A DNA stretch of 64,000 nucleotides from Panacagrimonas sp. (GTDB taxonomy: Bacteria; Pseudomonadota; Gammaproteobacteria; Nevskiales; Nevskiaceae), in NCBI GenBank assembly GCA_052387695.1, contig JBQTIX010000044.1:54620-118619 (forward strand), given 5' to 3'. Numbering within the stretch: position 1 is the stretch's first letter; each line of letters begins with the position of its first letter. The notes below the pieces were generated by a model. That model did no database searches and was not told the origin of the DNA. It saw nothing but the letters and a program-made list of their open reading frames with translations. Made by a program: the position numbers and the translations under genes. Shown here piece after piece: positions 30,894 to 34,784 of the stretch.

Positions 30894-33800
30894 ATGTACG
30901 ACGCCCCGCCCCCCTCGCTCCGCCCGGACTGCACCACGCAGCTTCGCGATCTCCTCGCGCGCAAAATCCTCGTGATCGACGGGGCGATGGGCACCATGGT
31001 GCAGGGTTACCGGCTGGGCGAGGCCGAGTATCGCGGCGAGCGCTTCAAGGACTGGGAGTCTGATCTCAAGGGCAACAACGACCTGCTGGTGCTGACCCAG
31101 CCGGACATCATCCGCGAGATACACAGCAAGTACCTGCTGGCCGGCGCGGACCTGATCGAGACCAACAGCTTCAACGCGCAGCGCATCTCGATGGCCGATT
31201 ACGGCATGGAGGCGCTGAGCTACGAGATGAACGTGGCCGCTGCAAAGCTCGCGCGCGAGGCGGTGGATGCGATCAGCACGCCCGAGCGTCCACGCTTCGT
31301 CGCGGGCGCGCTCGGCCCGACCAATCGCACCGCCAGCATCAGCCCGGACGTCAACGATCCGGCCAAGCGCAACGTCACCTATGACGAACTGGTCTCGGCG
31401 TACCTGGAACAGGCACGCGGGCTGGTGGACGGTGGCTCCGACCTGTTCCTGATCGAAACCATCTTCGACACGCTCAACGCCAAGGCCGCGATCTTCGCGG
31501 TGCTGACGCTGTTCGAGGAACGCGAACGGGTCTGGCCGATCATCATTTCGGGAACCATCACCGACGCCTCCGGACGCACCTTGTCCGGCCAGGTCGCCGA
31601 GGCGTTCTGGAACTCGGTGAGCCATGCCCGGCCGCTGGCCGTCGGCCTGAACTGCGCGCTCGGCGGCAAGGACATGCGCCCGTACATCGCCGAGCTGTCG
31701 CGGCTCGCCAACTGCTACATCTCCTGCTACCCCAACGCCGGTCTGCCCAATGCTTTCGGCGAGTACGACGAGCGCCCGCAGGACACCGCGGCGATCATCC
31801 GCGAGTTTGCCGAGAGCGGGCTGGTGAACCTGGTCGGCGGCTGCTGCGGCACCACGCCGCCGCATATCGGCGCGATTGCCAAGGCGGTGTCTGACGTGGC
31901 GCCGCGCGCACCGTCGGAGATTCCGCGCCTGTGCCGTCTCGCCGGCCTGGAACCGCTGACCATCACCAAGGAACGCGGCTTCATCAACGTCGGCGAGCGC
32001 ACCAACATCACCGGCTCGGCGGCGTTCAAGAAGCTGATCAAGGACGGCGATTACAACGCGGCGCTGACCGTTGCGCGCCAGCAGGTCGAGGCCGGCGCGC
32101 CGGTGATCGACATCAACATGGACGAGGGCATGATCGACGGCGTTGCCGCCATGACCCGGTTCCTGAACCTGATCGCGGGCGAGCCGGACATTTCGCGCGT
32201 GCCGATCATGATCGACTCGTCGAAGTGGGAGGTGATCGAGGCGGGCCTCAAGTGCGTGCAGGGCAAGCCCATCGTCAACTCGATCTCGATGAAAGAGGGC
32301 GAGGAAAAATTCATCCGCGAAGCGCGGCTGTGCCTGAAGTACGGCGCCGCCGTCGTCGTGATGGCCTTCGACGAGCAAGGCCAGGCGGACAATCTCGAAC
32401 GGCGCAAGGTGATCTGCACGCGCGCCTACAGAATCCTGACCGAGCAGGTCGGCTTTCCGCCCGAAGACATCATCTTCGACCCGAACGTGTTTGCGGTCGC
32501 CACCGGCATCGCCGATCACAATTTGTATGGCCTGGATTTCATCGAGGCCACGCGCTGGATCCGCCAGAACCTGCCGCACGCGCACGTCAGCGGCGGCGTG
32601 AGCAATGTGAGTTTCAGCTTTCGCGGCAATAACCAGATGCGCGAGGCGATTCACTCCGTGTTCCTGTACCACGCGATCAGCGCGGGCATGGACATGGGCA
32701 TCGTCAACGCCGGCGTGCTGCCGGTGTACGCAGACCTCGATCCCGAGCTCCGCGAGCGTATCGAGGACGTGATTCTGAATCGCCGTCCCGAGGACGGCAC
32801 CGAGCGCCTGATCGAGATTGCCGGCAAGTTCAAGGGCGATGGTGCGAAGCAGGAAGTGGCCGACGAGGCCTGGCGATCCCTGCCACTGGGCGAGCGCATC
32901 ACCCATGCGCTGGTCAAGGGCATGGATCAGCACGTGGAGGCCGATACCGAACTGCTGCGCGCCGAGATTTTTGCGCGCGGCGGGCGGCCCATCGAAGTGA
33001 TCGAAGGCCCGCTGATGGACGGCATGAACGTGGTCGGCGATCTGTTTGGCGCCGGCAAGATGTTTCTGCCCCAGGTGGTGAAATCCGCGCGCGTGATGAA
33101 GAAGGCGGTGGCCTGGCTGATCCCCTTCATCGAGGCCGAGAAGAAACCCGGCGACGCGGTGCAGGCCAAGGGCAAAATCCTCATGGCCACGGTCAAGGGC
33201 GACGTCCACGACATCGGCAAGAACATCGTCGGCGTGGTGCTTCAGTGCAACAACTACGAGGTGATTGACCTCGGTGTGATGGTGCCGGCGCAGAAGATTC
33301 TGGACGCGGCGAAAGCGAACAACGTGGACGTGATCGGCCTGTCCGGGCTCATCACGCCCAGCCTCGACGAGATGGCGAATTTCGCCAAGGAAATGGAGCG
33401 CCAGGGCTTCGACATACCGCTGATGATCGGCGGCGCCACCACCTCGCGCGCGCACACCGCGGTGAAGATCGACAAGAGCTACCACGGCCCCGTGGTGTGG
33501 GTGAAAGATGCCTCGCGCTCGGTGCCGGTGGTGTCCGCGCTGCTCTCGCCCACGCTCAAGCCCAAGCTGGTCGCCGAGCTGGAGAAGGAATACCAGAGCA
33601 TCCGCGATCGCCACGCCAACAAGGACCGCCAGGAGAAATTTCTGCCCCTGGACGCGGCGCGTGCCAAACGCACGCCCATCGACTGGCCGACCTATCGACC
33701 ATTCCGTCCGAGGATGCTTCTGCAGCAGGACCACGCGGTTTGCGAAGGCCCGAATTGCGAGCACCTTTTTCACGGGAATCGGGAATCGGGAATCGGGAAT

Positions 33801-34784
33801 CGCGACAGCGATTCCGCTTCCAACGATTCCCGATTCCCGATTCCCGATTCCCGGCCTTTGCAGTACGTCAAAGTCCTGCGCGACTACCCGCTCGCCGAAC
33901 TGCGCGAATACATCGACTGGCAGCCCTTCTTCATCGCCTGGGAGATGAAGGGCAAGTTCCCGGAGCTGCTCAACAACCCGGCGACGAGCGACGTCGCGCG
34001 CAAGCTGTACGCCGATGCGCAGACCATGCTCGACCGCATCATCGAAGGGAAATGGATCAGCGCCAGTGGCGTGATCGGGCTGTTTCCGGCTAACCAAGTG
34101 GGCGGTGACGATGTAGCGATCTACGCCGACGAAACCTATGCGACAGAAATCGCGCGCCTGCACAACCTGCGTCAGCAGGGCGAGCATCGCGCGGGGGTGC
34201 CGAATCGCTCGCTAGCCGACTACATCGCGCCCCGGGAATCCGGCCTGCACGATTACGTCGGCGCCTTTGCCGTGACCGCGGGAATCGGCTGCGCCGAGCG
34301 AGTCGAAGCCTTCAAGAAGGCCAACGACGATTTCAGCGCGATCCTGCTGGAGTCGCTGGCGGATCGCCTCGCGGAAGCTTTCGCGGAGCGATTGCACCAG
34401 CGCGTGCGCAAGGAATTCTGGGGCTATGTGCCGGACGAGCATCTCGACAACCAGTCCCTGATCGACGAGAAGTACATCGGCCTGGGCGGCGGCATCCGCC
34501 CTGCGCCCGGCTACGCCGCCTGCCCCGAGCACACCGAGAAGGCGACGCTGTTCAAGCTGCTGGATGTCGAAAACAACATCGGCATCACGCTCACCGAGAG
34601 CATGGCGATGTGGCCGGCGGCCGCAGTCAGCGGCTGGTACTACGCGCACCCCGAGTCGCAGTATTTCGTGCTCGGTCGCATCAACAAGGATCAGGTCGAG
34701 GACTATGCGCAGCGCAAGGGCTGGGACCTGCGCACGGCCGAGAAATGGCTCGCGCCGAACCTGGGTTACGAGCCGGAGGATTGA
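30894..34784 (+). CDS. metH: Cobalamin-dependent methionine synthase (MetH) with an in-frame ~48-aa insertion in the linker before the AdoMet-activation domain
   Basis: All four modules recognisable (Hcy-binding, pterin-binding, B12-binding [22 protein letters not shown], activation domain …[36 protein letters not shown]), collinear with E. coli MetH except at 33712-33852. Confidence 0.95.
33774..33852. repeat. Intragenic palindrome inside metH: GGGAATC x4, 23-bp spacer, GATTCCC x4 (79 bp), kept in frame (encodes …[26 protein letters not shown]…)
   Basis: Read directly. Arms are 28-29 bp perfect reverse complements built from tandem heptamers. Confidence 0.8.

Follow-up and report, generated by a model that had tools for sequence, protein, structure and literature searches.

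A translated palindrome of GGGAATC heptamers within the methionine synthase gene of a Panacagrimonas genome is probably a tolerated passenger

How does a long and perfect palindrome of tandem heptamers come to lie in frame in the middle of an intact gene for a conserved enzyme, and does it serve that enzyme in any way? This question was raised by metH, the gene for cobalamin-dependent methionine synthase, on a stretch of 64,000 nucleotides of Panacagrimonas sp. DNA (assembly GCA_052387695.1, contig JBQTIX010000044.1, positions 54,620 to 118,619; Nevskiales, Gammaproteobacteria). This whole stretch is hereafter called the window, and its own numbering is used for all positions unless another locus is named. 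The element consists of four GGGAATC units followed, after a short loop, by four units of the reverse complement GATTCCC. Judged by its sequence, it belongs to the GGGAATC heptamer class already known from Xanthomonas (PMC4692102) and has the 4+4 convergent-pair form. We consider it probable that the element is an intragenic copy of this class which resides as a tolerated passenger in a disordered linker of MetH; for its arrival we lean towards a process other than classical transposition. The parts of the element are the following.

33773 to 33802, + strand: G-rich arm of the sense strand, whose (GGGAATC)x4 run at 33774-33801 has GGG tracts, four in number, separated by 4-nt loops
33803 to 33823, + strand: loop of 21 nt, with a displaced fifth C-type unit CGATTCC (33809-33815) and then a decayed unit GCTTCCA
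33824 to 33853, + strand: C-rich arm, with (GATTCCC)x4 at 33825-33852; perfect reverse complement of the G-rich arm

An earlier note on this DNA had described GGGAATC x4, a 23-bp spacer and GATTCCC x4 with perfect 28-bp arms. The sequence confirms this, and with one flanking base counted per side the inverted repeat has arms of 30 nt, 100% complementary, around the 21-nt loop. Repeat finders reported two 7-nt arrays of 4.3 copies each (CGGGAAT x4.3 and CGATTCC x4.3). A double-heptamer pattern matched eight times in the 64 kb window where 0.53 matches were expected, none of 100 shuffled sequences reached eight, and every exact match fell at the metH element. The predicted RNA fold of 33740-33880 had a free energy of -81.6 kcal/mol (z = -9.2), and that of the 81-nt element alone -66.6 kcal/mol. 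The G-rich arm has G-quadruplex (G4) potential, since it offers four GGG tracts with 4-nt loops. Folded alone in ViennaRNA with G-quadruplex energies, it was modelled as a three-tetrad G4 at -8.4 kcal/mol, compared with -66.6 kcal/mol for the full hairpin. The 81-nt element is free of stop codons in all six frames, and its arms encode the hydrophilic peptides GNRESGI and DSRFPIP. It is flanked by TTTTTCAC on the left and by GGCCTTTG on the right. No Rfam family reached its gathering threshold at the element, and terminator and promoter scans found no such site there.

The heptamer repeats GGGAATC and GGGNATC of Xanthomonas and cyanobacteria were described by Rehm et al. 2015 (PLoS One e0144275, PMC4692102). 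GGGAATC repeats are highly enriched in two Xanthomonas genomes, with 186 and 183 repeats, of which 89-93% are intergenic, mostly within 50 bp of the ends of open reading frames (ORFs), and 7-11% are at least partly intragenic (PMC4692102). Four units per array are preferred in Xanthomonas, convergent array pairs occur in 70-75 cases per genome, and the G-rich strand forms G-quadruplexes in vitro according to circular dichroism spectroscopy (PMC4692102). A regulatory role of the class was not found in that study, a function was not established, and phase variation was judged unlikely (PMC4692102).

We scanned for (GGGAATC)3 in one genome per species and obtained at least 120 loci. The loci listed, to which the following counts refer, came mainly from Xanthomonas, Luteimonas, Dokdonella, Pseudoxanthomonas, Rhodanobacter, Gemmatimonadaceae and Moorena, with Panacagrimonas and Polycyclovorans also among them. 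The class is thus widespread in Xanthomonadales, Gemmatimonadaceae and cyanobacteria. Four units was the modal array length (62 of 178 arrays). The paired arrays were convergent in 23 cases and divergent in none, 4+4 being the commonest pairing, and the spacers of convergent pairs outside the window ranged from 24 to 187 nt and were unrelated in sequence. Arrays in other genomes fade into degenerate units at their ends, as happens in the loop of the window element. A conserved motif at the tail of the arrays was also considered and rejected, as the apparent GYARAAGC is mostly a decaying heptamer unit and no separate signature. At the protein level, the translated repeat (GNRESGI)n matched nothing but hypothetical ORFs of 40-74 aa without domains (from Xanthomonas, Moorena and Pseudoxanthomonas); this search bears out the taxonomic spread and is uninformative on real proteins.

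Measured against the features of this class, the window element has two perfect four-unit arrays where a tandem array of at least two units containing GGGAATC, perfect or of the form (GGGANTN)n, defines membership. It shows the preferred number of four units in each arm, and the G-rich arm precedes the C-rich arm, 21-23 nt apart, in the convergent orientation. Like the repeats of Rehm et al., it has the identical unit and is prone to slippage, and its host is a high-GC gammaproteobacterium related to Xanthomonadales. Unlike the usual class member near an ORF end, a site that is typical and not defining, the window copy lies mid-gene as a complete pair, in frame and translated within a conserved enzyme. 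Its loop is at the short end compared with 24-187 nt elsewhere, and Nevskiales were not covered by PMC4692102. The element is therefore an archetypal form of the class with a short loop, and what is new is its Nevskiales host and its translated mid-gene position. One four-unit GGGAATC-type repeat of X. campestris (no. 82) is located 38 nt from metH1 in a genome where metH is split into metH1 and metH2 (PMC4692102 supplement), which is probably a coincidence.

The gene that carries the element and the two segments of the linker in question are the following.

30894 to 34784, + strand: coding sequence of metH (cobalamin-dependent methionine synthase, 1296 aa), intact according to ORF translation, Pfam and an identical annotated protein
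33729 to 33764, + strand: family-wide Cys/His-rich linker extension D946-H957, outside the repeat element; DVCEGPxCDH-HHEH in most of 120 relatives
33765 to 33857, + strand: lineage-specific segment L958-P988, essentially the translated palindrome, as delimited by protein and codon alignments

Pfam assigned S-methyl_trans, Pterin_bind, B12-binding_2, B12-binding and Met_synt_B12 domains to the product, all essentially full length. The earlier statement that the reading frame is preserved thus holds, the repeat lying inside an intact 1296-aa ORF with five full-length domains. An annotated protein, 'MAG: methionine synthase [Panacagrimonas sp.]', matches the product at 100% identity, and the host DNA is a Panacagrimonas metagenome-assembled genome (MAG). 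Within metH the element occupies codons 960-987 of 1296, between the B12-binding (cobalamin, Cob) domain and the activation domain, which binds S-adenosylmethionine (AdoMet) and serves reactivation. A protein search with the 79-aa linker returned two short fragments only.

The relatives used for comparison were the 120 closest MetH sequences listed, from Panacagrimonas, Hydrocarboniphaga, Solimonas, Nevskia and Fontimonas. An insertion of ~48 aa had been proposed from a comparison with E. coli MetH, and relative to that protein (3BUL, 1K7Y) it is real, with 4-5 residues where window MetH has 54-55. The share specific to this genome is only ~26 aa, however. Between the RPRMLL motif and the ...REY motif just before IDWQPFF there are 69 aa here compared with 43-44 aa in most relatives. 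About 24 of the extra residues belong to a Cys/His-rich linker (DVCEGPxCDHHHEHATQ) found in nearly all Nevskiales relatives, and the alignment of these relatives, while placing the element in none of the 119 others, thus also showed that half of the supposed insertion is common property of the order. Where insert-free relatives have 5-6 residues (HHEHAT), window MetH has segment L958-P988 and is longer by ~26 aa. The Cys/His motif DVCEGPxCDH-HHEH itself is absent from E. coli MetH; its sequence resembles a metal-binding site, and it is dispensable in some lineages (the Nevskia group and MetH P0045).

In an AlphaFold2 model of residues 651-1296, built from 55 aligned sequences, residues 947-988 had a predicted local distance difference test (pLDDT) score below 50 and no secondary structure, and the first strand of the activation domain began directly after residue 988. 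The linker carrying the repeat is accordingly predicted to be disordered. The element is absent from the closest available relatives, including a MetH (P0002) that is 93% identical outside the linker. The core of the earlier note, namely that metH carries a short repetitive hairpin-forming element, in frame, in a linker between domains that tolerates it, is supported.

The same site in other Nevskiales has accepted DNA of quite different kinds. Linker length at this position ranged from 40 to 196 aa across the relatives, and every insert-bearing MetH had an insert-free nearest neighbour; the Cob-to-AdoMet linker site of Nevskiales metH is hypervariable. Two relatives, L001 (MetH P0006; 5091-5172 of that locus) and L002 (P0102; 5920-6004), carried intact inverted dimers of CGTC-tagged repetitive extragenic palindromic sequences (REPs), CGTCATCCCCGCGAAGGCGGGGATCC...GGATACCCGCCTTCGCGGGGATGACG, in frame and in the same codon interval. 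Decayed REP dimers with the right-hand REP in register were found in L003 (P0024; ~5930-5975) and L004 (P0101; ~5975-6015). The REP inserts span four divergent Nevskiales lineages and encode peptides of the VIPAKAGNQ- and LDTRLRGDD-type; a literature search for translated REP peptides found nothing. Locus L005 (P0020, ~4110-4590) carried in the same linker an in-frame endonuclease cassette of ~150 aa with DUF559 (PF04480) and PF18741, bounded by CCCTCTCCC/GGGAGAGGG inverted repeats. This insertion is recent, because the cassette is absent from the nearest neighbour P0018 (compared locus L129), which is 99% identical in protein and 95.8% in DNA. A similar cassette was present in P0045, with the Cys/His motif removed altogether. 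Locus L007 (P0004) had (CACGCCT)x4 in its Cob-to-AdoMet linker (12884-12911), encoding SHASRLTPHAS, an array that shows in situ amplification of a 7-nt unit at the site which the window element occupies. Between L002 and L128 the linkers differed beyond a clean insertion and an excision footprint was unreadable.

Might the window element be a mobile element of one of the known types? The earlier note had taken it for a REP-type element or a MITE (a transposable element of miniature size with inverted repeats); such an element would be a classical mobile one, placed by a transposase. The two arms are formally terminal inverted repeats, the element is small, and it is present here and absent from the nearest relatives. 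The arms are, however, microsatellite arrays, and the features of both element types were lacking, so that the assignment has to be given up in favour of the known GGGAATC class. Neither GTAG nor CGTC is found as a tag at either end, the flanks being TTTTTCAC and GGCCTTTG, and a degenerate CGTC REP pattern had no match at up to three mismatches in the 64 kb window. Instead of the short stem-loop of a REP (5-13 bp stem, 2-20 nt loop) or of a REPIN, its inverted doublet, the element forms a single 30-bp stem of tandem units whose arms are not themselves palindromic. By contrast, the inserts of L001 (5091-5172) and L002 (5920-6004) possess both the tag and the stem-loop. There is no evident target-site duplication next to the inverted arms: the sole flanking direct repeat, CCTTT at 33764-33768 and 33855-33859, was rejected because its copies are 91 nt apart and excision between them would break the frame. 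Nor is there a family of copies with a conserved interior. The 64 kb window contains no copy besides this pair, and the spacers of convergent pairs in other genomes, 24 to 187 nt long, are unrelated. Placement by a transposase therefore appears very improbable.

In-frame palindromic inserts had also been called rare, a view that needs correction, since the literature documents them and at this site they recur. Rickettsia palindromic elements (RPEs; Ogata et al. 2000, 2002, as summarised in PMC10969869) are in-frame palindromic repeats in housekeeping genes, about 100-150 bp long and dispersed, with conserved family sequences, and RPE-4 and RPE-6 are CGTC-tagged REPs (PMC10969869). The window element resembles them as palindromic repeat DNA that is in frame within a functional ORF, translated, and positioned compatibly with fold and function. 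This is a functional analogy only, as it consists of untagged microsatellite units of GGGAATC, belongs to a different sequence class and sits in a Panacagrimonas rather than a Rickettsia host, and it is set apart from RPEs by description. Intragenic CGTC/GTAG REPs and dimers typically add 20-30 aa, and Di Nocera et al. 2013 (PMC3733652) proposed that they are neutral where they lie in a flexible linker or loop. In the CGTC type the stem has 8 bp and begins with AT, and the loop has 4 nt (PMC3733652); the L001 and L002 inserts fit this family in tag, stem and loop. The window element shares with it the nature of a short hairpin-forming repeat inside an ORF, yet lacks the tag and the short stem-loop, each arm being a tandem array and no palindrome.

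We therefore favour a tolerated passenger, a reading best supported because the element is absent from the 119 other MetH sequences, because the site takes unrelated inserts, and because no regulatory role has been found for the class. The passenger would be neutral or slightly deleterious, with ~26 extra hydrophilic residues being translated. It may have been kept because the linker tolerates almost any stop-free, frame-preserving peptide and not for any benefit to the enzyme. Tolerance is indicated by the lack of stops in six frames, a net length that keeps the frame, the hydrophilic peptides and the disordered linker.

Passenger or not, the element might plausibly affect mRNA structure and translation, as the earlier note had suggested. 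The metH mRNA may form a 30-bp hairpin or a competing G-quadruplex, which would have to be unwound by the ribosome at the domain boundary. A perfect duplex of 30 bp is long enough to be a substrate of RNase III. By computation, a net gain or loss of units not divisible by three truncates MetH 20-75 residues downstream of the element, and slippage of this kind would remove the reactivation domain. Compensated changes (+1/-1) were computed to keep MetH intact and are harmless to the ORF since all frames are open. The same unit is hypervariable between strains in the Xanthomonas 7-bp variable-number tandem repeat locus Xe_04 (unit CGATTCC), for which 8 alleles of 5-12 units were reported (PMC8002079). 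As in contingency loci and Xe_04, the window unit is not divisible by three and slippage shifts the frame. The differences are that there is no evidence of switching, that the four-unit arrays are short, and that the gene encodes a housekeeping enzyme and not a surface or restriction function.

Could the element then have been selected as a device? The hairpin or G4 might cause ribosome pausing at the Cob/AdoMet boundary or tune the stability of the metH mRNA; the slippage-prone arrays might serve phase variation by switching the reactivation domain off; or a U5 tract (33766-33770) together with the hairpin might induce frameshifting to a truncated isoform. Such functions would be in line with a 30-bp stem that is perfect despite its coding location, with the position exactly at a domain boundary, with a sense-strand G-rich arm whose tracts are the four that a G4 requires, and with one-unit changes that give defined truncated products ending 20-75 aa downstream. 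A T5 run does lie 3 nt upstream of the 30-bp stem. Programmed frameshifting at this place nevertheless looks unlikely from the sequence, because CUU UUU C is not a canonical slippery heptamer (X XXY YYZ) and the 3-nt spacer is too short. More generally, an element missing from all 119 other close MetH sequences listed is not conserved, and the unrelated inserts of relatives at this site fit tolerance and not function. Terminator-like or promoter-like sites and Rfam families at gathering threshold were lacking at the element, and the study of the class itself found no regulatory role and considered phase variation unlikely (PMC4692102). Taken jointly, these functional explanations seem decidedly unlikely to us.

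Several observations nevertheless weigh against the favoured reading. The arrays are sparse, the window pair and one array in L007 being all that was present across 166 kb of Nevskiales DNA examined. None of 22 other convergent-pair regions was convincingly mid-gene, the long open frames over these pairs either having no Pfam domains or being followed by a gene start downstream (argG in L046). The mid-gene placement is for this reason exceptional for the class, and selection for some role is conceivable. The 100% identity of the arms implies that they either arose recently or were kept able to pair, through selection or concerted evolution. What is said here on G4 formation, on cleavage by RNase III and on translation follows from general knowledge. 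Finally, the allele occurred in no second assembly, and strict and relaxed metagenome scans for the right junction found nothing, so the unit numbers rest on a single MAG.

This last point also bears on the possibility that the palindrome is an artefact of short-read MAG assembly, produced by a fold-back chimera or by wrong collapse of a repeat. The protein stands alone in its cluster, on one contig; no independent contig with the junction appeared in the metagenome scans, and the contig index has no record of the exact protein. An error is nevertheless extremely improbable, because the frame is intact, although any single-unit error would break it, because the 4+4 convergent architecture is as in finished genomes, and because an element of 81 nt with a unique loop is short enough for single reads to span. 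Related in-frame arrays in independent Panacagrimonas assemblies also speak against an artefact.

Besides the window, two Panacagrimonas assemblies carried GGGAATC arrays, L042 and L007 (11953-11973 in the latter), both in coding regions. In L007, from the Panacagrimonas MAG GCA_052386745.1 whose MetH has 91% aa identity, the in-frame array GGAGAATC(GGGAATC)3GGAAGAAGC was found at 11945-11980 in another linker of metH, the one that joins the folate domain to the cap domain (Fol-to-Cap). There, 27 nt without a proto-repeat were replaced by 33 nt, which gives a peptide of 18 residues compared with 16. In L042 (Panacagrimonas sp. NZ_CBDCGN010000002.1), (GATTCCC)x4 lies in frame at 1322-1349 in the middle of a 1063-aa CusA-like resistance-nodulation-division (RND) pump. 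It adds residues to the loop matching E. coli CusA 425-445, encodes the same 11-residue peptide as window MetH, and has a flank, GCTTTCAAC, that resembles GCTTCCAAC of the window. The genus therefore tolerates GGGAATC arrays in other coding linkers.

Where, then, did the element come from? We lean towards the process, whatever its nature, by which arrays were also seeded at other places in the genus, and regard classical transposition as the less likely source. Independent arrival is favoured because arrays are found at REP-free sites (L007, L042) and because neither a REP tag nor a sub-hairpin exists in the window. A possible, though doubtful, alternative is that the palindrome arose in situ by remodelling of a CGTC-type REP inverted dimer already present at the linker site. 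Its outer half-stems and tags would have disappeared, and slippage in steps of 7 nt would have enlarged the inner half-stems (GCGGGAATCC ... GGATTCCCGC) to 4+4 units. Such an ancestry would concern the origin only, and the product would still look and behave as a member of the heptamer class.

The in situ route has the history of the site on its side, with REP dimers or remnants in the same codon interval of L001, L002, L003 and L004 and the right-hand REP in register. The window and the insert-bearing alleles share the flanks DHAVCEG..C[ED]H and L[QR]Y, where insert-free alleles have AKDVC...HHEHATQF. The REP stem ATTCCCGC/GCGGGAAT contains a GGGAAT core, and the inner half-stems of an outward-tagged dimer would give the observed order, G-rich and then C-rich. 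The right flank of the window element, GATTCCCGGCCTTT, resembles REP GATTCCCGCCTT, GATTCCCG(G)CCTT is similar to a REP arm, and CACGGGAAT is common to L003 and the window in the same frame. These similarities extend over 7-12 nt, however, and could be due to chance; the left flank TTTTTCAC is not a mirror of the right flank, and a CGTC or GACG tag and a sub-hairpin are missing from the window. Amplification of a heptamer at this very site is seen in L007, (CACGCCT)x4, and REPs and heptamer arrays co-locate in Luteimonas intergenic regions. On the other hand, GGGAATC arrays also occupy sites without a REP history (the Fol-Cap linker of L007, the cusA loop of L042), convergent pairs in other genomes lack REP outer halves, and no intermediate allele was found. 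The DNA identity of the left flank was slightly higher to L001 (0.79) than to L006 (0.69) in a sliding-window comparison, a weak hint of recombination.

As an observation in its own right, heptamer arrays were located within tens of bases of CGTC REPs or their dimers (stems ATTCCCGC/GCGGGAAT) at L092:1967-2127, L066:53-211 and L041:3389-3604. This proximity hints at a link between the two repeat classes.

A further and rather improbable reading takes GGGAATC arrays to be more than passive microsatellites and assumes that a sequence-specific process writes them into DNA, with the MetH linkers of Nevskiales as preferred landing sites for several classes of structured repeats. It would fit because a single genus has the same heptamer, in frame, at three coding sites unrelated to one another, because a 27-nt stretch without proto-repeat in L007 was replaced by a 33-nt array, and because heptamer pairs, CGTC REP dimers and a DUF559 endonuclease cassette have each come to lie in the Cob/AdoMet linker independently. 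If this were true, selfish DNA similar to the Rickettsia RPEs would be shaping protein linkers in this clade, and the clade would be a tractable system in which to approach the origin of the heptamer repeats of Xanthomonas, which has so far not been explained.

Two other features of the window may be mentioned. At 58462-58720 there is an apparently intergenic, hairpin-rich stretch with a 101-bp unit in 2.6 copies (83% match), which adjoins an 11-bp array at 58737-58768; no Rfam family came near its threshold on the 58462-58720 repeat. A cluster of five tRNA genes is located at the window end (63411-63997), with two more at 54213-54286 and 61934-62006.

The locus represents a clean natural case of repeat DNA of a non-coding type that is carried inside an essential multi-domain enzyme. 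For annotation, peptides of the types GNRESGI, DSRFPIP and VIPAKAGIQ mark translated repeats and not protein motifs. With its recurrent palindromic DNA types, the site could help to test how such repeats spread and whether translation or mRNA decay is affected by a 30-bp hairpin or a G4 within coding sequence. The range of the GGGAATC class is extended to Nevskiales and to translated positions. For the enzyme family, the capacity of the Cob-to-AdoMet linker of MetH to absorb between 26 and about 150 extra residues is of use to those who wish to understand or engineer this highly dynamic enzyme.

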